The translations under genes were made by a program, and so were the position numbers. 64,000 bases of DNA, from NCBI GenBank assembly GCA_016874675.1, contig VGTL01000006.1, positions 9,009 to 73,008 on the forward strand, written 5' to 3'. Below the pieces are notes generated by a model. The model made no database searches. It was given only the letters and a program-made list of their open reading frames with translations, and was not told the origin of the DNA. Of the stretch, positions 2,788 to 62,748 are shown piece by piece (position 1 is the stretch's first letter; each line of letters starts with the position of its first letter). This stretch comes from Methanobacteriota archaeon. GTDB lineage: Archaea > Thermoplasmatota > DTKX01 > VGTL01.

Positions 2788-5700
2788 ATGAATGAGAAGG
2801 CGTTGCTCGGGGAGAGCGAGAGGAAGGGGTACGAGAGAAAGCTCGAGGACTGGCGGTCGGAGGGGTTCGATGTCGGGCGGCTGGCGCTCATCCTCAGGGA
2901 CAGCCCGCAGGACGCCCCGGGCGCGTTCGAGTCGGCCGAGAAGGGCATCCACCGGAACCGGGAGCTTTTGGGCGAGTTCCGGTCCCTCCGGCCCGCCGGG
3001 CCCGAGGAGCAGGTGTCCCGGATGCAGACGCTCCTGCGGGACCCTTGGATGAGCCGCGAGGCCGAAAACCTCCTCCTGGAGCTCCAGGTCCGGGCCGAGC
3101 GGGTCCGCAAGGAGGAGCAGCGCAGAAAGCGCGAGTCCGAGCGGCGCGTCGGCCGCCTGAGGGAGAGGGTGGCGGCCTGGAAGGGGCAGGGCTTCTCCAC
3201 CGGACCCGTCGAGCGGGCGCTCGAGGGCGACATCGCGGCCGCCGAGCACGAAGTGGAGCGCTTCGGGGAGGCCGTGGGCCGCCTCCTCGCGTGCGAGGAG
3301 GAGCTCGGAGAGCTGGGGGGCCAGGAGTTCGCCGAGGAGCGGAAGGGCGTGCGCGGGATGCTCCGGGACCCGGCGAGGGCGCAGGAGGCCGAGGAGGCGC
3401 TCATAAAGCTGCGCGTCCTATTCGAGAAGCGGAGGAGCGAGGAGCGGCTGCGCGCCGGACAGGAGAAGCTCGCCCGGGCCGCCGTGCGGGAGAGGGTCGC
3501 CGCCTGGAAGGGGGCCGGCCTCAAGGTGCCCCTCGCCGACGACTTCATCGAGAACGCCGGCATGGACCTCCTCAACGAGCACATGGAGGAGCTCGAGGAG
3601 GCGGTGGCGCGGCTTGCGGAGCTGCGCGAGGAGGCCGGGCGCCTTTCGCGGGACGAGGACCCGGCCGGCCGGGAGGCGCTGTCGGCGCTCCTGCAGGACC
3701 CGACGCAGGTGCAGGCCGCCGAGGAGAGCCTCCTGCGGCTCCAGTTCGCCTCGCAGCGCGCAGCCCGCGAGCGGGAGCGGAAGGCCGAGGAGAGCCGCAG
3801 GTGGAGAACCGAGCTGCTCTCCCGGGTCAAGGAGCTCAAGGGCGCCGGCTACGACACCTCCCGGGTCGATTCGGCATTCGACGGCGACGACGAGCACCTC
3901 CGGACCGAGTGGGTGAGGTACCGCATCCAGCTCAAGCGGGTGCAGGAGCTCGAGGAGGAGCTGCGGACCCTTCACTCCGAGGGGTTCGAGAGGGAGGTCG
4001 GGGCGCTCGTCGCCGACCTCAGGAGGGTCGGCCTGGACACCACCGAGCGGGTGCTCGCCGGAAAGCGCGCCCTCGAGGAGAAGATGGCGGCGCGCCGGGA
4101 GGCGGAGCTTAGGGCGCGGGAGGCCGAGGAGCGCGAGAGGCTGGAGCTCACAAAGAGGCTCGGGGGCTGGATAGGCGAGGGCTACCGCGACGGCCGGCCG
4201 GGCGGGCTGGAGGCCCTCGGCTCCCTGCCGATGCCCGAGATGCGAGGCGAGCTCGGGGAGGTCGAAAGGAGGGTCCGCCTCGTCGAGCAGATGCGCCGCG
4301 AAGTGATGTCTTTGGACATCACCGGCTTCGAGACCGAGAGCGCCACGCTGCTCGACGAGCTCTACGACATCTCCCGGCTCGATGTCTCCGGACCGAGGGC
4401 GGAGGAGCTCCGGACGAGGATTCTCGCCAAGCGCGAGGAGGAGCGGCGCCGGGCGGAGGAGGAGCGCCGGCGGCGAGAGGAGCTGCGCTCCAAGATAGCG
4501 GGCTGGAAGAAGCTGGGCTTCGAGGTGTGGGCGCTGGAGGCCCTGCTCGACGGGGACCTGGAGTTCCTCCGCAGGGAGTACTCGCTGGCGCGCATGTCCA
4601 TCCAGAGGGCCCAGTCGCTCCTGGGCGAGCTTGCGGCGATACCGGCCGAGGAGGCCGGGCCCGAGCACGCCGAGGTGCGCCAGAAGATCTACACCCTGGA
4701 GCGGCTCGACGATTGCGCCGAGCAGATAGAGAGGCTCCGGCTTTCGGCCCAGGAGAGGGGCCTCCAGCGGAAGAAGCTCGAGGACCTGCGCGAAAAGATC
4801 CGGGAGTGGAAGGAGCAGGGCCACGACGTCTCCCGCCTGGAGCGCCTCGACGACGGCGACATAGAGGTGCTGACCAAGGAGTTCCTGATGTTCAAAATCC
4901 GGATCCAGAAGCTCCGGGAGCTCGAGGAGGAGCTCGAGGCCCTGGACACCGAGGGGTTCGAATCCGAGCGGGCCGCGATCGAGCGCAACCTGAAGAACGT
5001 CGAGGCGCTGGGCGAGACCCGGGACCTCCTCTCCGGGCTCGAGCTCAAGATAGGCAAGCGGATGGCCGAGGAGGTGCGGCTCAGGGAGGAGCGGCGCAGG
5101 CTTCAGGGCGAGTACATCGCCAAGATGTCGGCCTGGCTGGAGGAGGGCTTCCACGTCGACACGCTGGAGGGCGCGCTGGGCAAGAAGCCCTCCGAGATGG
5201 CGTCCGATTTCGCGCGCTTCGAGAGGTCCGTCGAGGAGATACGGCAGATACGCGAGCGGCTCGAGGAGTTCTCCGGATTGGGCTACGACGAGCTCATCGC
5301 ACGCATCCGGGAGAAGCTCCGGGAGGTCGGTCGCATAGAGGAGGCGAAGAAGGACGTCCACGAGCTTTGGGAGAGGGTGGAGCGGAGGAAGAAGGAGAGC
5401 GAGAGCCGCCGCAGGGAGGACGACGACCTGCGCTTCGGGATCGTCAGGCAGATAGAGGCCTGGGAGGCGGAGGGCTACGACGTCGGGGAGCTGCAGAAGC
5501 TCAGCGGCGGCAGGCTCGAGGACCTGCGCCGCGCCGTCATCACCCACCGGATGAGGATAGAGAGGATGCAGGGCCTGGAGGGAATCCTCGACGCGATGGA
5601 GACCCGGGAGTTCGGGACCGAAGCGGCGGCCATACGGGCCCAGCTCAAGGACCTCGACCGCGTCGAGCAGGTGGAGGGGGCCATCGCCGCCCTGAAGGAG

Positions 5701-6878: not shown

Positions 6879-7697
6879 GTGCCCACCGGGATCGACAGCC
6901 TCGACCTCCTGCTCAAGGGGGGCTTTCCCGCCCAGACGGTCAACCTGGTCTCCGGCCCTCCCGGCAGCGGGCGCAGCCTCACCTGCATGCAGTTCGTCTA
7001 CTACGGGGTCGAGAGGTTCGACGAGCCCGGCCTCTATATAACCCTCGACGAGGAGCGCCAAAGCATCCTGAGGGCGATGAAGTCCTTCGGCATGCGCCCG
7101 GAGATGTACGAGGAGGAGGGAGACCTCACGGTGGCGGACCTGGGCTGGTTCTCGAAGGTGCTAGGCCCGGAGGCCGAGGCGCCGGCGGGGCTGGCCGGGA
7201 TGGACCTTCTGCGCGAGCGCGCCCGCAAGGACAACCTCGACGTGGAGTGGCTGAGCGGCGAGCCGGACGCGCACGAGGAGCTCGAGGGCGGGTTCGTCGG
7301 GTTCCGTACGCTCCAGGCCGTGGTGGAGAGCCTTTTGAAGAAAAGGAAGATCCGCCGGCTCGCGGTCGACTCCGTGGCGTCCATCGGGCTCCTGAGCGGC
7401 CAGGAGGAGCTCTTCCGCAAGGAGCTCTTCTCGTTCGGGCGGTTCCTCCGGGACCGCAAGCTCACCTCCCTACTCGTGACCGAATCCTTTGGCCCCGCCG
7501 GGTCGGTCCGCTTCGGCGTGGAGAACTTCCTTGCGGACACCCACATCTGCCTGAGCCTTCGCAACATACGGGGGGAATCGATGCGCACGGTGACGGTGCA
7601 GAAGATGCGGTTCGGAACGCACGACACCGGCGTCCACCCTTTCACCATCACCTCGCGGGGGATGGAGATAAACGTTCGAGAATTCGTGAAGTTATGA
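6879..7697 (+). CDS. KaiC/RecA-superfamily ATPase, FlaH/ArlH-like archaellum component with degenerate Walker A
   Basis: The N-terminus 'IDSLDLLLKGGFPAQTVNLVSGPPGSGRSL' is KaiC/RadB-like. The gene lies immediately upstream of the archaellin gene. The Walker-A lysine is replaced by Arg (GSGRS rather than GxGKT). Confidence 0.55.
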   Translation: MPTGIDSLDLLLKGGFPAQTVNLVSGPPGSGRSLTCMQFVYYGVERFDEPGLYITLDEERQSILRAMKSFGMRPEMYEEEGDLTVADLGWFSKVLGPEAEAPAGLAGMDLLRERARKDNLDVEWLSGEPDAHEELEGGFVGFRTLQAVVESLLKKRKIRRLAVDSVASIGLLSGQEELFRKELFSFGRFLRDRKLTSLLVTESFGPAGSVRFGVENFLADTHICLSLRNIRGESMRTVTVQKMRFGTHDTGVHPFTITSRGMEINVREFVKL

Positions 7698-10167: not shown

Positions 10168-10275
10168 AGGGGTCAGGGTTCGGGGTCCAGGGTTCAGGGC
10201 GGGAGCCGCGCCTGCCCGTCCCGCCCGTCGTCGTCCCCCTGCACCCTGCACCCTGCACCCTGCACCCCCGTCCCG
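10168..10275. repeat. G-tract tandem array + core + C-tract inverted array (hairpin/G4-capable), between flaF and flaG
   Basis: The element reads '(GGGTYCA)n gggcgggagccgcg CCTGCCCGTCCC gcccgtcgtcgtc (CCCTGCA)4 ccc'. Its central core is shared with the 16424-16572 element. Confidence 0.7.
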
Positions 10276-10788: not shown

Positions 10789-12627
10789 ATGGAGTTTCTG
10801 GAGTGGGCCCGCCGGCAATGGAGGGAGTCCGACCGGCTCTCCGCGGTGCTCTGGGCGGTTGTCATCGGCGCCATCGCCATCCGCTCGGTGCCGGGCTGGA
10901 TATACCCGGCCTGGGGAAGCGACTTTGGCATCTATTTCGGCATAACCCAGGACTTCGTCGAGAACCCGCAGTTCTTCCGACCGTACAGCGGCTGGGGCAC
11001 GAGCTACAGCTACTTCCCCGTGCTCTACGCCACGACGGCCGCGGTGCACGGCCTCACCGGATTGGACCTGGCCTTCCTGATGCCCAAGGTGGCACCGGTG
11101 TTCGGCGGGCTGACCGTGCTGCTGCTCTATCTCTCGGTGAAGGGGCTCTTCGGGCGGCGCGAGGTCGCCCTGCTCGCGGCGGCATTCCTGGCGGCCAATC
11201 CGTTCCAGGTATACCAGACCAGCCACGCCGCGCCCATGACCATGGGGCACTTCTTCCTGTGCCTCTCCGTCCTGCTCTTCGTGCTGCACCGGAGGGACAG
11301 GTTCTGGACCGGGCCGCTCTACATCTCGACCGCCATGCTGGTCGGCTCGCACCACCTCGGGACCTACTTCTACATCCTCTTCGTGTTCGCGGCGATCGTC
11401 TGGCGCAACCTCCAGTCGCGCGAGTGGACCGAGAACCTCAAGGAGGAGCTCTTCTACTTCCTGGCGACCGTCACTCTCACCTTCTCCTACTGGATACTGG
11501 TGGCGACCCCGGTCTTCCGGGCGGACTTCGCCTCGGCCCTGCCCATCGGCTCGTGGTCCACGGTCGGGCTGTTCTACGTGCTGGTCGCCGGGGTGTTCGC
11601 CGCCATCATCTTCCTGCGCCGGTCGGAGCGCTTCCGGCGGTTCGTGGCGTGGAAGCTCTGGTGGCCCACGCCGCGCGAGGACGCGGTGAAGGTCGGGGCG
11701 ACCGTGGCGGCCTGCGCGGGATTGTCGGCGCTGTTCACGGTCGTCCCCATATACGGCTCGAACTTCACCTTCCTGCCCGCGGCGACCGCCTTCCTCCTGC
11801 CCCTTTTCTTCATCCTGGGGCTATCCGTGGCCGGCTACCGGTACCTCGACCGTTTCCCGGACCGGGCCTACGTCAAGGCGTGGCTCCTGTCCACCACCGC
11901 CTCCTTCCTGTTCGCCGTAATGACGCGCAACCAGGCCATATATTCCTTCCGTCACCTCGAGTACTTCGCCTACCCGCTCTCGATAATGGCGGGGGTCGCG
12001 GTGTGGGAGATTTGGGGGTATATGGGGAAGGCAGGAAGGCAACGAGGCAGCAAGGCAGCAGGGAAGGACCAAGGCACTTTGGGCGCAAAGGGGGAGGCGG
12101 GCGACCGGACGCCGGGGAGGAAGTGGTTCGCACTCGGCGTCGCGGCGCTGGTGGTGGCGAGCGCCGCCACCGCCTACTCGGTGCAGAGCACCACCTCGCG
12201 GTTCGAGGAGTCCATCTCGGCCGAGGTGTTCGAGGCGGCCGACTGGATGCAGGAGAACGTGCACACCAACCTGACCGTGGCGAGCGACCACCGCGTGAGC
12301 CAGATAATCTGGACAAGGGGGTTCAAGGTCACCTCCGACGAGGCCTACTGGATATTCTTCGCCGAGAACTGGACCGATGCCCTAGACGAGCTCAACGGCA
12401 CCCAAAGGACCTACGGGAGGGTGGGCTTCGTCGTCATCGACGACGTGATGCGAGAGAAGGGCGTGCAGTCCAACCTCAACGAGACCCCCCGGCCGATAAC
12501 CGACCTCCATTACGCCAAATTCTCGCAGGAGCCGTTCCGGCTCCTCTTCCGCGCCCGGAGCGCCGACGGTTCGAAATGGGCCGAGGTCTCCGCGGTGGAC
12601 TGGGGGTACATAGAGAAAAACGGTTGA
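10789..12627 (+). CDS. Polytopic membrane glycosyltransferase (GT-C fold, PMT/ArnT/AglB-like) with soluble C-terminal domain
   Basis: About 11 predicted TM helices lie in the N-terminal 400 aa and the C-terminal domain is soluble. The gene is adjacent to the archaellum genes. No WWDYG motif is present, so it is not a canonical AglB. It contains an in-frame repeat insertion at 12022-12080. Confidence 0.5.
   Translation: MEFLEWARRQWRESDRLSAVLWAVVIGAIAIRSVPGWIYPAWGSDFGIYFGITQDFVENPQFFRPYSGWGTSYSYFPVLYATTAAVHGLTGLDLAFLMPKVAPVFGGLTVLLLYLSVKGLFGRREVALLAAAFLAANPFQVYQTSHAAPMTMGHFFLCLSVLLFVLHRRDRFWTGPLYISTAMLVGSHHLGTYFYILFVFAAIVWRNLQSREWTENLKEELFYFLATVTLTFSYWILVATPVFRADFASALPIGSWSTVGLFYVLVAGVFAAIIFLRRSERFRRFVAWKLWWPTPREDAVKVGATVAACAGLSALFTVVPIYGSNFTFLPAATAFLLPLFFILGLSVAGYRYLDRFPDRAYVKAWLLSTTASFLFAVMTRNQAIYSFRHLEYFAYPLSIMAGVAVWEIWGYMGKAGRQRGSKAAGKDQGTLGAKGEAGDRTPGRKWFALGVAALVVASAATAYSVQSTTSRFEESISAEVFEAADWMQENVHTNLTVASDHRVSQIIWTRGFKVTSDEAYWIFFAENWTDALDELNGTQRTYGRVGFVVIDDVMREKGVQSNLNETPRPITDLHYAKFSQEPFRLLFRARSADGSKWAEVSAVDWGYIEKNG
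12022..12080. repeat. Single-arm GGCAGNAAG tandem array inserted in-frame in glycosyltransferase CDS
   Basis: The sequence 'gggaaggcaggaaggcaacgaggcagcaaggcagcagggaagg' encodes 'GKAGRQRGSKAAGKDQG' in a loop between predicted TM helices. Confidence 0.65.
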
Positions 12628-12745
12628 GGCAGGAAGGCAGCAAGGCAACACGGCAGAAAGGCAGAAAAGGGACGAGACCCCTTCTCGTCCGCTCCCCTTC
12701 TCCCTTGCTGCCTTTCTGCCTTCCCGCCTTCCTGCCTTTCCCCGA
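12628..12745. repeat. Inverted-repeat element (GGCAGNAAG)n ... (CTTNCTGCC)n between convergent genes
   Basis: The element reads 'ggcaggaaggcagcaaggcaacacggcagaaaggcagaaaag' / palindromic centre 'gacgagaccccttctcgtc' / 'cccttgctgcctttctgccttcccgccttcctgcc'. Confidence 0.8.
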
Positions 12746-12749
12746 CAGC

Positions 12750-14471
12750 CTAGTATTTCCTCTCCTGCGGCGGATACTTCGTTATGGCGACGGGCTTGTA
12801 GTCGAGGACTATGTCGTCCCCCTTCCTGCGGGCCAGGGTGTGCTTGAGCCAGTTTTGGTCGTCGCGCTTTGGGAAGTCGCGGCGGAAGTGCGAGCCGCGG
12901 CTCTCCGTCCGGTTGATGGCGCACAGGGCGATGACCTCGGCGACCTCGAGCAGGCTCTGGAGCTCCAGCGCCTCGATGAGCTCGGTGTTGAAGACCAAGG
13001 ACCCGCCGGACAGGTGGATGTCCTTGTACCGCTTCTTGAGCTCGCGCGCCTTGGCCAGCGCCTCCTTCATAGGCCCCTCCGTCCTGTAGATGCCGACCTT
13101 GTCGAACATGACGGTCTGGAGCTCTTCGCGTATCCTCGGTACGGACTCCGGCCCGCGCGCATCGAGCAGCGCCCCGATGCGCTTCTTCTCGGTCTCCAGC
13201 ACGCCGGCCGGGACCTCCGGCAGCGCCGTGCCCTTCACGAACGCCGCGGCGGCCATCCCGGCGCGCCGGCCGAAGACGACCGTCTCGAGCAACGAGTTCC
13301 CGCCCAGGCGGTTGGCGCCGTGCACGGAGATGCAGGAGCACTCGCCGGCGGCGAACAGGCCCTTCAGCGTCGACGCCCCGTTCACGTCCGTCGGGACGCC
13401 TCCCATCGAGTAGTGCGCGGTCGGCCGGATGGGCAGGGGCTGGGTGAGGCAGTCCACCGCGGCGAAGTTGATGCCCAGCTCGCGTATCTGCGGGAGCCTC
13501 TCCTGTATCTTGGCGCACCCGAGGTGCCGCAGGTCCAAATCGACGTACGGCCTGCCCTTGACGCCGCGGCCCTCCTCTATCTCGGTCTGTATGGCCCGGG
13601 CGACGACGTCGCGGGGAGCAAGCTCCATCTTCCCGGCGGCGTACCTCGACATGAAGCGCTCGCCCTTGCCGTTGACGATGTACGCGCCCTCGCCCCGGGC
13701 GCCCTCCGTGACCAGGATGCCGGTCGGGTACAGGCCAGTGGGGTGGAACTGGACGAACTCCATGTCCTCGAGGGGGACGCCCTCCCGGAACGCCATCGCC
13801 ATCCCGTCTCCGGTGACGTCCATCGCGTTGGAGGTGACGGAGAACACGCGCCCGTAGCCACCGGTCGCCAGGAGGACCGCCTTGGCCCGGAAGAGGTGGA
13901 GCTCCCCGGTCCTCTGGTCCAGGGCCACGACGCCGCCCACGACCCCGTCCTTCACGACGAGCCTCGTCGTGTAGTATTCCTCGTAGACCATGACGCCCTG
14001 CCTGAGCAGGTTCTCGTACATCGTGTGGAGGAGCGCCTGCCCGGTCCGGTCCTGTATGAAGCAGGTGCGCGGGAAGTTCTGGCCGCCGAAGGGCCTCTGG
14101 TCGATTGTGCCCAGGCGGCCCTCGAAGTGCCTCTGGGCCAGCGCCTCGCCCTCCCCGACCATCGAGAAGGCCGCGCCCATGTGCTCCAGCTCGTAGATGT
14201 TCATCGGCGCCTCGGCGATGAGCACCTCGATTCTGTCCTGGTCCCCGAGGTAGTCGGAGCCCTTGACGGTGTCGAACTCGTGGTCCTTGATGGTGTCTTC
14301 GGGGTTGATGACGGCGTTGATGCCGCCCTGCGCCGCCACCGAGTGGGAGCGCACCGGGTGGAGCTTGGAGACTATCGCGACATCGGCGCCCTGGCGCGAG
14401 GCCTCGATGGCCGCCCTCATCCCGGCGAGCCCGGCCCCGACTATGACCACGTCGTGGGTGAAAACGGTCAT
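12750..14471 (-). CDS. sdhA: Succinate dehydrogenase/fumarate reductase flavoprotein subunit
   Basis: The N-terminus has an FAD Rossmann fold '[17 protein letters not shown]' and '[12 protein letters not shown]', and the length is 573 aa. Confidence 0.9.
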
Positions 14472-16423: not shown

Positions 16424-16572
16424 ACAAGGGGCAAGGGGCAATGGGCAATGGGCAATGGGCAAGGGGCAAGGGGCAAGGGGCAAGGGGCAAGGGGCAAGGG
16501 GCGGACGGAGCCTGCCCGTCCCTTGACCCGTGCCCCGTGCCCCGTGCCCCTCGCCCTTGTTTCTTGCCCCTC
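16424..16572. repeat. (GGGGCAA/GGGCAAT)n array + core + (CCCCGTG)n inverted array; canonical G-quadruplex motifs on both strands
   Basis: About 12 heptamer units are followed by 'ggcggacggaGCCTGCCCGTCCCttgacc' and then 'cgtgccccgtgccccgtgcccctcgccc'. It lies in the sdhB / sod divergent region. Confidence 0.8.
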
Positions 16573-16604
16573 CATTATGAGAGATTCGTGCCAGATTCTG
16601 CAAT

Positions 16605-16654: not shown

Positions 16655-17269
16655 ATGGAACAGCCCAGGTTCTACCAGTTGCCCGAGTTGGAGTACGACT
16701 ACAAGGACCTCGCGCCGGCGATGAGCGAGGAGCAGCTCCGGCTGCACCACACCAAGCACCACCAGGCGTATATCAACGGCGCCAACGCGATACTCGAGAA
16801 GCTCGACAAGGCCCGCAAGGAGAGCGCCGAGGTCGACCAGAAGGCCGTCTTAAAGGAGCTCTCCTTCCACGAGGGCGGGTTCGTCCTGCACAACCTCTTT
16901 TGGGAGAACCTGGGGCCCCACGGAAAGGCCGGCGGGAAGCCCTCGGGCGTCCTCCTGGAAGAGATCAACCGGGAGTTCGGCTCGTTCGAGCGCTTCAAGG
17001 CCGAGTTCTCCAAGGCCGCGAACTCCGTCGAGGGCTCGGGCTGGGCGGCGCTGACCCGCTGCCGCGGCACCGGCCGGCTCCTGCTCATGCAGATAGAGAA
17101 GCACAACGTCAACGTCTTTCCGCACTACCGCCTGCTCATGGTGCTCGACGTCTGGGAGCACGCCTACTACCTGGACTACAAAAACGACCGCGCCAAGTAC
17201 GTCGAGGGCTTCTGGAGCATCGTGAACTGGGACGTCGTGAACAAGCGGCTGGAAGCGCTGCTCAAGTAG
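16655..17269 (+). CDS. sod: Fe/Mn superoxide dismutase
   Basis: Sequences '[15 protein letters not shown]', '[11 protein letters not shown]' and the 204-aa length fit the family. Confidence 0.9.
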
Positions 17270-17278
17270 ATTGTTGAA

Positions 17279-17466
17279 AGGGAGCAAGGGAGCAAGGCAG
17301 CAAGGGAAGGCAGGAAGGCAGAAAGGCAGCAAGGCAGCAAGGGAAGGCAGCGAGGGGGGAACGAAGGGAGGAGGGCAGAAGGCGGAGAGGGAGAAGGGGA
17401 GGGCGAGAATAGGTACCGTTCCCTTCCTGCCTTCCCTTGCTCCCTTGCTGCCCTCGTCCCTTCGTC
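17279..17466. repeat. Inverted-repeat element (GGCAGCAAG/GGGAGCAAG)n ... (CTTGCTSCC)n between convergent sod and BNR genes
   Basis: A purine-rich arm (17279-17408) is followed by the centre 'aataggtaccgtt' and a pyrimidine arm 'cccttcctgccttcccttgctcccttgctgccctcgtcccttcgtc'. Confidence 0.8.
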
Positions 17467-21745: not shown

Positions 21746-21903
21746 AAAGGCGCAAGGCGCAGGGCGCAAGGCGCAAGGGACGAAAGCGCAAGGTACAGGG
21801 CGCGAGGCGGAAGGGATTTGCGTGAGATCCCCCCTTGTTCCTCGCGCCTTGACCCTTGCGCCTCAAGCCTTGCGCCTTGCGCCTCGTGCCTTGCCCCTTC
21901 GCG
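21746..21903. repeat. Inverted-repeat element (GGCGCAA)n ... (TTGCGCC)n between moeA and mobB
   Basis: The element reads 'aaggcgcaaggcgcagggcgcaaggcgcaagggacgaaagcgcaaggtacagggcgcgaggcggaaggg' ... 'ccttgacccttgcgcctcaagccttgcgccttgcgcctcgtgccttgcccctt'. A short partial copy lies at 22703-22730. Confidence 0.8.
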
Positions 21904-27990: not shown

Positions 27991-27992
27991 AC

Positions 27993-28014
27993 CCGGGTGC
28001 CGGCACCCGGTTTC
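27993..28014. terminator. Palindrome plus T-tract between convergent genes (bidirectional terminator candidate)
   Basis: A perfect 18-nt palindrome 'ccgggtgccggcacccgg' is followed by 'tttc'. It lies between the 3' ends of the STAND gene and the L10e gene. Confidence 0.45.
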
Positions 28015-29460: not shown

Positions 29461-29485
29461 GGCCGGGTCCCCCTGCCGCCCCGGC

Positions 29486-30685: not shown

Positions 30686-30912
30686 GAAGGGGGCGGGGAG
30701 CGGGCGGGAAGGGAGGAAGGCAGCAAGGGAAGGCAGGAAGGCAGCAAGGCAGCAAGGGAAGGCAGGAAGGCAGCAAGGCAGCAAGGGAAGGGAGGAAGGG
30801 AGAAATGGGAGGACCGTCGTCCCTTGCTGCCTTCCTGCCTTCCCTTGCTGCCTTGCTGCCTTGCTGCCTTCCTGCCTTCCCTTGCTGCCTTGCTGCCTTG
30901 CTGCCCTCCTGC
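30686..30912. repeat. Largest inverted-repeat element (GGCAGCAAG/GGCAGGAAG)n ... (CTTGCTGCC)n in ftsZ / folD divergent region
   Basis: A roughly 120-nt purine arm is followed by the centre 'gggaggaccgtcgtccc' and a roughly 90-nt pyrimidine arm 'ttgctgccttcctgccttcccttgctgccttgctgccttgctgcc...'. Confidence 0.85.
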
Positions 30913-30921
30913 CAATCGCTC

Positions 30922-33777: not shown

Positions 33778-33825
33778 GGGGGAACGGGGAACCAAGGCGC
33801 ATGGCGTAGGGTAGGAAGCTAGAAA

Positions 33826-33915
33826 CCTCGGACTTCAGTCCGAGGTCGTTTCACCATAGGAGGCGTCGATGCCCCGGACTTCAGTCCGGGGTGCAAGGTG
33901 CAAGGACATGGTGCA
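33826..33915. repeat. Twin perfect stem-loops CCYCGGAC-TTCA-GTCCGRGG 46 nt apart, followed by (GTGCAAGG)2, between convergent RACo and metF
   Basis: Hairpin 1 'cctcggacttcagtccgagg' lies at 33826-33845 and hairpin 2 'ccccggacttcagtccgggg' at 33872-33891. Each is an 8-bp stem with a 4-nt loop. Confidence 0.7.
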
Positions 33916-45379: not shown

Positions 45380-45387
45380 ACGTCGTG

Positions 45388-45480
45388 CAGTCGGTCAAGG
45401 GGACGTGCTGTCGCAATTGGTTAAGGGGACGGGTTGTTGCTATCGGTTGGGGGGATGGGGACGAGGAGGGGGGCGGGGAT
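45388..45480. repeat. Three tandem copies of about 26-bp 'CGCAATTGGTTAAGGGGACG'-like motif downstream of acsE / cooC (convergent)
   Basis: Unit 1 'cagtcggtcaaggggacgtg', unit 2 'ctgtcgcaattggttaaggggacggg' and unit 3 'ttgttgctatcggttggggggatggggacgagg'. G-tracts follow. Confidence 0.65.
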
Positions 45481-51323: not shown

Positions 51324-51450
51324 CGGGCAGCGGACGGAGGATGGAAGAACGGGGGCAGCAAGGCAGCAAGGCAGCAAGGCAGCAAGGGTACGATACCGCG
51401 TCCCTTTCTGCCTTGCTGCCTTGCTGCCTTGCTGCCTTCCGCTTTCTGCG
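51324..51450. repeat. Inverted-repeat element (GGCAGCAAG)n ... (CTTGCTGCC)n between convergent fdhA and DUF3786 gene
   Basis: The element reads 'gggggcagcaaggcagcaaggcagcaaggcagcaagggtacg' / 'ataccgcgtcc' / 'ctttctgccttgctgccttgctgccttgctgccttcc'. Confidence 0.85.
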
Positions 51451-57365: not shown

Positions 57366-59402
57366 ATGGTCAGCTTCGAGATGACCGGCCGCGACGGCCT
57401 GGCGAGGCTGGGCCGCCTGTACACCCCCCACGGGAGCGCGACCACGCCGGCGCTGCTCCCGGTGGTCCACCCGGGAATCCAGACCATCCCGCCCTCCGAG
57501 ATGAGGCGGCTGTTCGGGGCCGAGATCGTGATAACCAACTCCTACATCATCCGCGGCCGCGTGGAGTTCCGCGAGAGGGCCCTCCGCGAAGGCCTCGGAG
57601 GCCTCATCGGCTGGGACGGCCCGGTCATGACGGACTCGGGCACCTTCCAGAGCTACATGTACGGGGAGGTGGAGGTCTCCCAGCCGGAGATACTGGACTT
57701 CCAAAGGCGCATCGGCTCCGACCTTTGCACCATGCTGGACATATTCTCCCCGCCCGAGACGCCCGAACCCGAGGCGGCCTCGCGGCTTTCCGAGAACTCC
57801 CGGCGCGCCGGGCAGGCCTCGGAGCTGTTCCATGGGGGAGGGGGCACATCGCAGGGGGCAAGGGGCAAGGGACAAATGGCGGGGGGCGAAGAACAGGGAT
57901 TGGTGCTCGCCGTGCAGGGAGGTATCTTCCCCAACCTGCGGGAGCGCTCCGCCGCCGACATCGCGGGACTGGGGTGCGCCGTCCAGGCCATCGGCGGTGT
58001 CGTGCCCCTGATGGAGAGCTACCGCTTCGCGGAGCTCGTGGACGTCGTGATGGCCGCAAAGAGGGCGCTCCACCCGGCCCGGCCGGTCCACCTCTTCGGC
58101 GCCGGCCACCCCATGATGTTCTCGCTCGCCGCGCTCATGGGCTGCGACCTTCTCGACTCCTCCTCCTACGCCAAGTACGCCAAGGACGGCCGGATGATGT
58201 TCAGCTGGGGCACGCGCCACCTCGACGAGCTCTCCCACCTTCCGTGCGGATGCCCCGTCTGCGCGTCGCATGACCCGGAGGGGCTGCGCTCCCTGCCGGA
58301 CCCAGAGCGCGTCCGGAAGCTCGCGGAGCACAACCTCCACGCCTCGTTCTCGGAGCTCCGGGCGGTGCGCCAGGCCATAGCGGAGAGCCGGCTGTGGGAG
58401 CTCGTCGAGGAGCGGTGCCGGGGCCATCCCGCCCTCCTCGACGCCCTCCACGCCCTGGGCGGCCACGCCGCGCAGCTGGAGCGCTTCGCCCCCGCCTCCC
58501 GGACGGGCGCGTTCTTCTACAAGGGGCCGGAGTCGTCGTTTCGGCCGGAGGTGCTGCGCTGGGAGCGGCTGGTCCGGGAGCGGTACACGATGCCCGATTC
58601 GGAGGTCATGGTCTGCCTGGAGGAGGCCCCCAAGCCCTACTCCCGGCACTATGCCTCCCTCGTGCGGCGGATACAGGAGCGCTGGGACGCCCGATTCGTC
58701 GTGACCTCGTTCTTCGGCCCGGTCCCGCTGGAGCTGGACGGCATGTATCCCGTGGCGCAGTCGCTCGTTCCCTCCAGGCTGGACCCCGAGTCGGCGGCGA
58801 GGGTCTCCAGGGCGATGAAGCGCTTCTCCCACGACCTCCGGTCGCAATTCTCGCTGGTGTGGGAGGGGGAGCGGTCCTTCGAGGCGCTGGGGGCGGTGGT
58901 GCCGGAGGGCCGGGGCGTTGTCTCGGACTGGGAGATGCTCCGTGTCCGCGCCACCGCCGAGCTGCAGTTCGGCCGGGACGCCGCCGCCGCGCTCCTCGAA
59001 GGAAAGCTCGAGCTCGTGCTCTCGCCCAACACGGGCCGGGTCCGCAACGTGCTGGCCGGTGGCGAGCACGTGCTCTCGCTGCGGGCCCGGGACGGGTTGT
59101 TCACCCTCAGGATGCCGGGCGCCCGGCGATTGGTCGCCGCGGTCGGACCGCCGCGGCTGCGCGTGGTGGTGGACGACGACGCGGCCGGTTTCGCCGCGGC
59201 CGGCAAGAACGTCTTTTCCCGGTTCGTCAAAGAGTGCGACCCGGAGATAAGGCCCATGGAGGAGGTGGTCGTGGTGGACGGCTCGGACCGGCCGGTGGCC
59301 TGCGGCCGGGCCCTGATGGTCCGCTCCGAGATGCTCGCCTTCACCAGGGGGATGGCGGTGCGGGTGCGCGAGGGCTCAGGGGGGCCTCCCGGGGAGGGGT
59401 GA
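57366..59402 (+). CDS. tgt: Archaeosine tRNA-guanine transglycosylase (ArcTGT) with C-terminal PUA-type domains
   Basis: 'PVMTDSGTFQ' and the zinc site 'CGCPVCASH' are present. The length is 678 aa. It contains an about 22-aa Gly-rich in-frame insertion encoded by a GGGGCAA repeat at about 57833-57900. Confidence 0.85.
   Translation: MVSFEMTGRDGLARLGRLYTPHGSATTPALLPVVHPGIQTIPPSEMRRLFGAEIVITNSYIIRGRVEFRERALREGLGGLIGWDGPVMTDSGTFQSYMYGEVEVSQPEILDFQRRIGSDLCTMLDIFSPPETPEPEAASRLSENSRRAGQASELFHGGGGTSQGARGKGQMAGGEEQGLVLAVQGGIFPNLRERSAADIAGLGCAVQAIGGVVPLMESYRFAELVDVVMAAKRALHPARPVHLFGAGHPMMFSLAALMGCDLLDSSSYAKYAKDGRMMFSWGTRHLDELSHLPCGCPVCASHDPEGLRSLPDPERVRKLAEHNLHASFSELRAVRQAIAESRLWELVEERCRGHPALLDALHALGGHAAQLERFAPASRTGAFFYKGPESSFRPEVLRWERLVRERYTMPDSEVMVCLEEAPKPYSRHYASLVRRIQERWDARFVVTSFFGPVPLELDGMYPVAQSLVPSRLDPESAARVSRAMKRFSHDLRSQFSLVWEGERSFEALGAVVPEGRGVVSDWEMLRVRATAELQFGRDAAAALLEGKLELVLSPNTGRVRNVLAGGEHVLSLRARDGLFTLRMPGARRLVAAVGPPRLRVVVDDDAAGFAAAGKNVFSRFVKECDPEIRPMEEVVVVDGSDRPVACGRALMVRSEMLAFTRGMAVRVREGSGGPPGEG
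57833..57900. repeat. Single-arm GGGGCAA-type array inserted in-frame in arcTGT CDS
   Basis: The sequence 'gggggagggggcacatcgcagggggcaaggggcaagggacaaatggcggggggcgaag' encodes 'GGGGTSQGARGKGQMAGGEEQG' immediately N-terminal to the conserved '...LVLAVQGG' segment. Confidence 0.65.
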
Positions 59403-62586: not shown

Positions 62587-62670
62587 CTGCTATTGGATAG
62601 GGGGACGTATCTTCGCAATTGGTTCGGGGGACGTGTTTGTCCAATTGGGTAGGGGGAACGACGGTGGGAA
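62587..62670. repeat. Three tandem copies of the same about 26-bp 'CAATTGG-N3-GGGGGACG' motif, downstream of the surface-protein gene
   Basis: Unit 1 'ctgctattggatagggggacgtat', unit 2 'cttcgcaattggttcgggggacgtgt' and unit 3 'ttgtccaattgggtagggggaacgacgg'. Unit 2 matches the 45408-45433 unit at about 21 of 26 positions. Confidence 0.65.
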
Positions 62671-62671
62671 G

Positions 62672-62692
62672 CGGGAGCCCGTTTTCTTACGC
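62672..62692 (+). terminator. Short stem + TTTTCTTACGC (terminator candidate), motif shared with 28011-28020
   Basis: The sequence 'cgggagcccgttttcttacgc' ends in the same 'tttcttacgc' decamer that follows the palindrome at 27993-28010. Confidence 0.35.
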
Positions 62693-62748
62693 CCCCCGAA
62701 CCAATCGCGTGGCGAAATCCTAAATAGGGGCAATCCGTTGGCACGGCA

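Follow-up and report, generated by a model that had tools for sequence, protein, structure and literature searches.

Palindromic tandem-repeat elements of foldback type dispersed in a freshwater Thermoplasmatota archaeon and its close relatives

What are the hairpins of short tandem repeats that lie between the genes of a 64-kb stretch of contig VGTL01000006.1, and how did they come to occupy so many sites? The stretch (hereafter the window) belongs to an uncultured freshwater Thermoplasmata/Thermoplasmatota archaeon with a GC content of 68%, and an earlier reading of its sequence (the original prediction) had described a family of intergenic elements in which a purine-rich repeat array is followed by its reverse complement. 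The reading favored here, to which a probability of roughly one half is assigned, is that these hairpins form a clade-specific, non-autonomous family of foldback-type palindromic minisatellites, whose members would have been copied between sites and resized by slippage. Entire units are added to or lost from one arm without a matching change in the other, by replication slippage or unequal exchange. Complete elements with their idiosyncratic cores recur at unrelated loci of one genome, and every kind of permissive site is occupied, from the gaps that follow stop codons and the spacers of divergent promoters to, in frame, the surface loops of proteins. The clade DNA covered comes to about 220 kb in total, which is less than one whole genome, and all of it derives from short-read metagenome assemblies, on which the unit counts of the longest arrays rest.

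The repeat itself was defined by motif statistics on the window. The motif GGCAGSAAG occurs 37 times on both strands compared with 1.87 ± 1.47 expected from 100 dinucleotide shuffles of the window, none of which (0/100) reaches 37. The matches concentrate at the loci reported earlier, where every cluster runs from plus-strand copies to minus-strand copies. Neighboring matches are spaced 8 nt apart, and Tandem Repeats Finder (TRF) likewise returns a period of 8 with the unit AAGGCAGC. Consequently, the 9-nt unit of the original prediction is not the true period; the nonamer is the octamer plus the first G of the next unit, successive 9-mers overlapping by one G. Units of AAGGG among the octamers give rise to higher-order periods of 21, 29, and 37.

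The hairpin architecture held up at all four of the two-armed loci first described (elements B, C, D, and E), both in an inverted-repeat search and in independent assemblies, and the gene contexts given for them were correct. The statement that at least five copies exist stands insofar as the family is real and larger than listed, with three more elements made of other units (F, G, and H). However, the fifth copy, reported as an intergenic single arm, lies in coding DNA: this array is in frame inside a 612-aa open reading frame (ORF) at 10789-12627. The elements of the window are as follows.

Element B, 12627 to 12740, unstranded: left arm of AAGGCAGC-type octamers at 12627-12666 and a complementary array as right arm at 12698-12740.
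Apex mini-hairpin of element B, 12667-12697: GGACGAGA-cccc-TTCTCGTCC.
Element C, 17278 to 17465, unstranded: left array at 17278-17350, continued by a degenerate purine tract to about 17409, and a shorter right array at 17419-17465.
Element D, 30686 to 30913, unstranded, the largest in the window: left array at 30703-30813 with a higher-order period of 29, right array at 30820-30913 with a period of 37, apex at about 30806-30822.
Element E, 51324 to 51450, unstranded: a perfect (GGCAGCAA)x4.2 array at 51354-51387, a 15-nt center, and (CCTTGCTG)x4.5 at 51403-51438, the outer units being degenerate.
Element F, 21747 to 21899, unstranded: 7-nt unit AAGGCGC, left array at 21747-21814 and right array at 21831-21899.
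Element G, 16425 to 16575, unstranded: (CAAGGGG)x11, the apex GGACGG-agcctgc-CCGTCC, and (CCCCGTG)n, with one inter-arm mismatch per unit.
Element H, 10168 to 10267, unstranded: (CAGGGTT)x4.6, a GC-rich center, and (CCCTGCA)x4.4, with one inter-arm mismatch per unit.
Variant that follows the same plan with units of 26 nt, 62592 to 62710, unstranded: three units of approximately CAATTGGTTAGGGGGACGTGTTTGTC, an apex, and one partial inverted unit.
In-frame single-arm array, 12028 to 12060, plus strand: AAGGCAGC x4.1 in the gene for the 612-aa membrane protein, where it encodes part of a basic loop (GKAGRQRGSKAAGK...).

Elements B, C, and E fill gaps between convergent genes. Element B occupies the 122-nt gap between the 612-aa membrane-protein gene (stop codon at 12625-12627), which its array abuts with a one-base overlap, and sdhA (stop at 12750); its inverted repeat (12627-12666 / 12698-12737) has 40-nt arms that are 83% complementary. 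Element C lies between the genes for superoxide dismutase (SOD; stop at 17269) and a 482-aa protein (stop at 17465), with a 41-nt inverted repeat (17278-17318 / 17422-17462) that is 88% complementary, while element E separates a formate-dehydrogenase-like gene from a DUF3786 gene and has 35-nt arms (51354-51388 / 51402-51436) that are 97% complementary. Two elements sit between TATA boxes of divergent genes, namely D between the TATA-like boxes of ftsZ and folD (87-nt inverted repeat, 30702-30788 / 30820-30906, 87% complementary) and G between those of sdhB and the SOD gene. The remaining two separate genes on the same strand: F occupies the gap from moeA to mobB, and H lies between two archaellin-type genes. 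The 26-nt-unit variant also occurs as a one-armed copy of three direct units at 45387-45459 of the window and, in full two-armed form, as three units facing four inverted ones at 3540-3760 of locus L064 (L-numbers denote contigs and loci other than the window). Its unit contains the motif GGGGACG, as is found at many apexes.

All of these elements have a common anatomy, in which a G- and purine-rich array of units, 7-8 nt long outside the 26-nt variant and mostly with a GCAAGG or GCAGGG core, is followed by a short apex and a complementary pyrimidine array. Elements measure 60-340 nt, with arms of 30-190 nt that contain 3-24 units and are 78-100% complementary, stems of 30-130 bp of tandem units, and centers of 5-130 nt that contain no ORF. 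The apex or core often reads GGGACG...CGTCCC, and the outer ends (T)GAAAGG / CCTTTC and GGACGA / TCGTCC recur. Most elements begin 0-25 nt past a stop codon. Array pairs were collected from the window, the metagenome loci, and the relatives described below by clustering seeds on their centers and by TRF pairing. The 64-kb window contains seven elements, to which 89 kb of metagenome loci add about 22, and the purine-rich arm is the 5' arm in 29/29 array pairs, which are not phylogenetically independent. As an inverted repeat reads identically on both strands, this polarity is a true, strand-independent property of the elements, and it is as expected if all of the unit families inherit a terminal inverted repeat.

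The distribution of the elements was probed beyond the window. Scanning 241 million metagenome records with a strict hairpin pattern identified nine loci, none overlapping the window, each of which holds one to four elements; 8/9 come from the same lake project. This result agrees with the earlier description of a dispersed palindromic repeat family. A viral contig collection yielded no match in hairpin form and only two unrelated single arrays. In a genome collection, the pattern AAGGCAGCAAGGCAGCAAGG matched at least 56 loci, and the matches listed are all bacterial one-strand arrays, mostly coding repeats of period 24, with no hairpin among them. In one bacterium, the Chitinophagales metagenome-assembled genome (MAG) CAZXGO01 (GC about 0.47; L007, L021, L027, L045, and L046), (CCTTGCTG)n arrays are dispersed, each after a conserved head of about 70 nt, and at L027 the arms of the copy are inverted on either side of an assembly gap. 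The octamer CCTTGCTG has apparently become a dispersed repeat independently in this unrelated organism.

Closer to the window, four syntenic relatives were reached through MoeA homologues (L079, L080, L081, and L082), and all of them carry the foldback architecture with units that differ from those of the window: GTAAACAA/TAACAAGT in L079, CGGGCAAT in L080, AAGGCGC and CCGTGAG in L081, and the 7-nt AGGCAGC, at five or more loci, in L082. The elements are consequently not genome-specific, as had been proposed. The FtsZ proteins of L081 and L082 are 95% and 91% identical to that of the window, respectively, and no such arrays were seen in 24 kb of two relatives at 87% identity (L070 and L072). 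This pattern suggests that the trait is restricted to a narrow clade.

Since short-read metagenome assemblies were used throughout, it could be asked whether the inverted joins are chimeras that assemblers make from a simple repeat. One contig (L004) does stop inside element C, and the inverted pair in the bacterial MAG spans an assembly gap. However, four to five or more contigs from other samples, located by exact-protein look-ups in the same JGI project and in Logan assemblies, match the window at 99.9% and run gapless across B, C, D, F, and G. The inverted arrangement is thus reproduced by independent assemblies, including those of the sub-read-length elements E and B, and the architecture is present in syntenic relatives from other projects. 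An assembly artefact, which the original prediction had named as a possible refutation, is effectively refuted and extremely improbable.

Comparison of near-identical contigs reveals how the arrays change. Element E accounts for the only length difference in 24 kb between the window and the 99.9%-identical contig L075, which amounts to 16 nt more (two octamers) in the C-rich right arm only, together with a single-nucleotide polymorphism in the loop. As two units are gained in one arm only, this difference is direct evidence of unit-wise slippage and shows that the arms change independently, and it bears out the earlier suggestion of slippage. Within an arm, the higher-order repeats are 94-98% identical compared with 87% complementarity between arms. 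In G and H, one inter-arm mismatch is repeated in every unit, which indicates that each arm was homogenized on its own. Furthermore, five perfect 24-nt repeats are confined to one arm of L064a, an element of locus L064, and arms can be of quite unequal length (9.5 vs 15.8 units in L066c, and 24.5 vs 14.2 in L064a).

Slippage within arrays does not account for what is shared between loci. L064c and L068, whose flanks are unrelated, agree in their outer units and have a 22-nt apex that is identical in both. Three copies in L082 have a common, non-palindromic core of about 65 nt, which is inverted in one of them, and two L082 copies have an odd unit, AAACGATTGG / CCAATCGTTT, mirrored in both arms. 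Because such idiosyncratic cores (22 nt and about 65 nt) recur at unrelated loci, some copying step is needed. In the proposed mechanism, elements would be copied between sites by one of two routes. The first would be a trans-acting enzyme that recognizes the structure or the subrepeats without leaving a target duplication, for which single-strand, HUH-type transposition is one candidate, and the second would be ectopic recombination or gene conversion with the arrays as homology. The dominant unit of each genome would then be homogenized after copying.

Orthologous intergenic regions, the comparison of which had been recommended with the original prediction, include both filled and empty sites, and the contrasts at G, C, and F were counted in favor of copied foldbacks. 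In L081 and L082, the gap orthologous to the G site lacks the element; in the window, element G is flanked on both sides by TGAGA, and a single TGAGA is present at the empty L082 site. At the C site, the orthologous gap is 24 nt long and empty in L081 and holds an AGGCAGC element in L082. A 13-nt empty gap is found at the F site in L080, and a degenerate element at that of L079. The D site contains no arrays in L081 or L082.

Several results weigh against a family that is copied between sites. No transposase Pfam match was obtained among 48 ORFs beside the elements (L061-L069), the other loci, as annotated by JGI, show no transposase or recombinase (the clade DNA seen amounts to about 220 kb), and no gene for a RAYT (an HUH tyrosine transposase) was seen in the same DNA. 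Target-site duplications were sought at 37 elements, and the longest flanking direct repeat averages 3.0 nt vs 3.15 nt in permuted controls, although the fuzzy boundaries of the elements leave room for a short duplication. Only two flanking repeats are suggestive, TGAGA at G and GATGG at L064c, and since flanking repeats are no longer than in the permuted controls, TGAGA at G could be due to chance. Local seeding is also indicated. In L081, a CTCACGG array abuts the ftsZ stop codon at a position where the window has a single CCCGGCTCA. Likewise, two convergent gaps of 24-25 nt in the window, 27991-28014 and 29461-29485, contain single-unit hairpins (CCGGGTGCC/GGCACCCGG and GCCGGG...CCCGGC), which may be 'seed' states, and L081 has expanded CCGTGAG arrays at both of the orthologous gaps. 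Most comparisons of convergent gaps between the window, L081, and L082 find some hairpin (the C-site gap of L081 has none), so the hairpin structure itself may be selected. Lastly, the amount of clade DNA seen and the short-read origin of the copy numbers of the longest arrays tell in the same direction.

A reading without mobility is a serious rival to copying, even if it is considered unlikely. Short GC-rich hairpins would be clade-specific hot spots for slippage (for example, through a property of replication or repair) that expand in place, while ectopic gene conversion evens out the loci. The single-unit hairpins with expanded counterparts in L081 fit this reading well, as do the separate homogenization of the arms, the lack of both a target-site duplication and a transposase in the searches above, and the fact that the dominant unit differs from genome to genome even at shared sites such as the membrane-protein loop described below. 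Units of 7-8 nt are, moreover, an over-represented size class among prokaryotic tandem repeats (PMC4692102). The identical cores of 22 nt and about 65 nt at unrelated loci, one of them inverted, are harder to explain by expansion in place. The independent origin of one octamer at more than 20 loci is also unlikely, and the purine-first polarity of all 29 pairs would need an additional mechanistic bias.

A different possibility is that a clade-confined mobilization system spreads the foldbacks by recognizing the hairpin or the 7-8-bp subrepeats without target duplication, while the polarity would make each copy a bidirectional stop that the host would have co-opted at convergent genes. Such a stop would place the G-rich RNA first, which would favor an R-loop or a pause, and closure of the hairpin would follow. 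This more specific proposal is put forward tentatively and is held to be improbable. To our knowledge, no prokaryotic counterpart of the foldback transposons exists; if the proposal is true, these elements may be the first.

Copies inside genes illustrate the permissive sites that the favored family of copied foldbacks occupies. Orthologous membrane proteins of 600-670 aa have in-frame arrays in the same cytoplasmic loop, with a different unit in each lineage: AAGGCAGC at 12028-12060 of the window, GTGAACAA at 1743-1776 of L081, and GGCAGAC at 156-210 of L082. In L066, a complete CCGGGTG foldback (7231-7344) is translated in frame in an HdrA-like protein (P0241). The loop concerned comprises 6-8 residues in distant homologues, 15-41 within the clade, and 41 in P0241. 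A further short array, GCAAGGG x3.6 at 57851-57875 of the window, lies inside the gene for an archaeosine tRNA-guanine transglycosylase (57366-59402).

As the elements usually adjoin stop codons and either strand can fold, many mRNA 3' ends should carry very stable hairpins. The predicted RNA fold of D reaches -185 kcal/mol (z -14 vs shuffles) with about 90 pairs, in keeping with the stem of about 90 bp first estimated for this element, and that of E reaches -86 kcal/mol (z -13). The two strands of B fold with -69 and -83 kcal/mol (z about -7.5). The fold of C (-84.5 kcal/mol, z -2.4) is weak owing to a left arm that far exceeds the right arm in length. Transcription from either side would thus yield a very stable hairpin beside the stop codon, which probably blocks 3' exonucleases or aids the end of transcription. 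Such a function would be a side effect or a secondary co-option and not the raison d'être of the family. A terminator or stabilizer role is plausible in view of another GC-rich archaeon in which hairpins can terminate transcription: in Haloferax volcanii, 503 termination sites have hairpins upstream, and one hairpin that was tested ended 59% of transcripts in vivo (PMC7237163).

It could accordingly be argued that the elements are selected RNA elements, bidirectional 3'-end hairpins that serve as terminators or exonuclease blocks in a T-tract-poor archaeon of 68% GC, and that their repeats are evolutionary noise. The start of most elements just past a stop codon, the filling of convergent gaps by B, C, and E, the extreme stability of the folds on both strands, and the retention of a hairpin in most orthologous convergent gaps despite the change of unit (the C-site gap of L081 excepted) are all consistent with this account. 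A bidirectional terminator cannot be the whole story, however, because copies occur between divergent TATA boxes, inside operons, and in coding loops. D and G, being upstream of the promoters on both sides, should not be transcribed, F and H lie within probable operons, and the in-frame copies form part of proteins. Several orthologous gaps are empty or measure just 13-25 nt, and stems of 90-130 bp go far beyond what a terminator needs. At genes transcribed one way, sense RNA was not consistently more stable than antisense RNA; this absence of a sense-strand bias was counted in favor of copied foldbacks. The arrays contain no T-tract, as was noted at the outset, and no T-run follows the hairpin in B, C, D, E, or F, as an intrinsic terminator would require. 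One metagenome copy, L061a, happens to have T-rich DNA downstream. As an explanation of the whole family, selection at the RNA level is therefore regarded as doubtful.

Function at the level of DNA was considered as well, in the form of G-quadruplexes or i-motifs, cruciforms, or sites for a chromatin or regulatory protein at the GCAAGG core. This core, or GCAGGG, recurs over unit types, and an insulator or a regulator site would be well placed between divergent promoters. Canonical quadruplex (G4) motifs with G3+ runs are present in G, H, and parts of C and D, and the analogous repeat of Xanthomonas forms a G4 in vitro (PMC4692102). In contrast, the main AAGGCAGC family has GG runs only, B, E, and F contain no G4 motif, and arms are hypervariable in copy number. 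Since the units of relatives, such as GTAAACAA and CCGTGAG, are unrelated in sequence, there is no one conserved binding site. A role of this kind as the reason for the family is thus very unlikely. Intramolecular triplexes, considered in the light of PMC4666352, were rejected, as the arms are 75-89% purine and not homopurine, and are inverted and not mirror repeats. The apex GGACG...CGTCC was also rejected as the mark of a general class of intergenic hairpins, given that it is not enriched in the window (11 found vs 8.8 expected).

Standard families of repeats were examined as possible identities. CRISPR arrays were ruled out, as no unique spacers separate direct repeats. The whole window has 0 matches to Rfam 15 at the gathering score and contains no tRNA or tmRNA, which rules out these RNA identities. 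In addition, no description of foldback-type elements was found in the literature on archaea or prokaryotes. The earlier remark that this is not a described element is correct with regard to Rfam and to the archaeal literature, while the architecture itself has precedents in Xanthomonas and in the Foldback/Galileo transposons.

The nearest described elements are the GGGAATC repeats of Xanthomonas. These G-rich heptamers (GGGGAYT in Nostoc) are about 90% intergenic, lie near the stop codon of the upstream gene, and are of unknown function (Rehm et al. 2015, PMC4692102). Each genome has 70-75 'convergent' pairs, in which a G-rich array is followed by its complement (PMC4692102). Similar to those repeats, the archaeal elements are dispersed G-rich arrays of 7-8-nt units near stop codons that vary in copy number among relatives, and they include convergent inverted pairs that are purine-first (29/29 here). 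The host is bacterial in the one case and archaeal in the other, and the unit sequences differ. Xanthomonas has mostly single arrays with a preference for four units, which is G4-competent, and its unit GGGNATC has G3 tracts; here the paired form dominates, with 3-24 units per arm, arms that reach 130-190 nt, and a main unit, AAGGCAGC, with GG only. Additionally, several unit families coexist here, the unit changes between sister lineages, unique cores are shared, and some genes contain in-frame copies.

The eukaryotic Foldback/Galileo group comes closest in architecture. Its transposons (Drosophila FB, Galileo, and Tetris) have inverted arms composed of tandem subrepeats (PMC3573991, PMC4079207). 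The long inverted arms of subrepeats, their unequal and fast-changing lengths, the short or variable center, and the mostly noncoding copies are features in common. However, the eukaryotic elements are of kilobase scale with longer subrepeats, and they have transposases (of the P-superfamily for Galileo) and target-site duplications, neither of which was found here. With no ORF in the centers and no systematic duplication, the likeness is architectural only, and homology is not claimed.

The original prediction had likened the elements to MITEs (miniature transposable elements with inverted repeats) and to repetitive extragenic palindromic (REP) sequences. This holds in that they are small, dispersed, and noncoding, with inverted arms, and fails in that they have neither a systematic target-site duplication nor an unpaired GTAG/CGTC tag. 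A REP is defined as a 20-40-bp palindrome with a 5-13-bp stem and such a tag at one end (PMC3733652). In the present elements the stems are 30-130 bp of tandem units, and GACG/CGTC is paired at the apex and the outer ends with no unpaired tag, so stem length and tag rule out membership in the REP class. Like REP/REPIN sequences and the Rickettsia palindromic elements (RPEs), they are short, dispersed, mostly extragenic palindromes without target duplication, and some of these known families also have no known transposase (PMC3733652, PMC3116915). In-frame insertion in protein genes (here the HdrA-like and membrane-protein loops) is a further likeness to RPEs, and mRNA stabilization or transcription termination has been proposed for REP and RPE palindromes (PMC3733652, PMC3116915). 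MITEs derive from insertion sequences (ISs), with which they share terminal repeats, and make target-site duplications (PMC3184786). The elements resemble them in being small (under about 500 bp), noncoding, multi-copy, and intergenic, with terminal inverted repeats and transcripts that would fold into hairpins. Unlike in MITEs, no parent IS or systematic duplication was found, and the inverted repeats are themselves microsatellite arrays.

Two other inverted repeats were observed in passing. At 33820-33900 of the window, the 138-nt gap between convergent RACo-like and MTHFR genes contains two direct copies of a 20-nt hairpin, CC(T/C)CGGACTTCAGTCCG(A/G)GG, followed by GGTGCAAGGTGCAAGG. At 10290-10360 of L069, a loop-less (GGCGCAG)n/(CTGCGCC)n palindrome lies beside a TATA box and beside a further inverted repeat that is AT-rich, CATGTAACC...GGTTACATG, and that looks like a putative binding site for a regulator. 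With regard to the host, the region 28000-52000 of the window includes genes for CODH/ACS (a fused CdhA-CdhC-like protein of 1369 aa), CdhD/E, MTHFR, FolD, and RACo, as well as a formate-dehydrogenase-like molybdopterin enzyme and HdrA/MvhD-like proteins, and an archaellum cluster is located at 6.8-10.7 kb. As judged from gene content, this is a motile Thermoplasmatota archaeon of a freshwater lake that is predicted to be capable of the Wood-Ljungdahl pathway.

What appears to be new here is the presence of foldback tandem-repeat hairpins in archaea; the design is already known from the Xanthomonas repeats and the eukaryotic foldback transposons. In practical terms, short-read assemblies break at such elements, which can also inflate the number of ORFs called in MAGs of this kind, and the elements would serve as strain-typing markers in the manner of variable-number tandem repeats. 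The family is an archaeal, clade-restricted addition to the small set of prokaryotic repeats with microsatellite inverted arms, and its comparative material is unusually clear, comprising filled and empty orthologous sites, turnover of units, polymorphism of unit number between strains, and the in-frame invasion of protein loops. It could help to address how such palindromes spread when no transposase is visible, how archaea tolerate near-perfect palindromes of 90-130 bp, and whether hairpins contribute to the formation of transcript 3' ends in GC-rich archaea.

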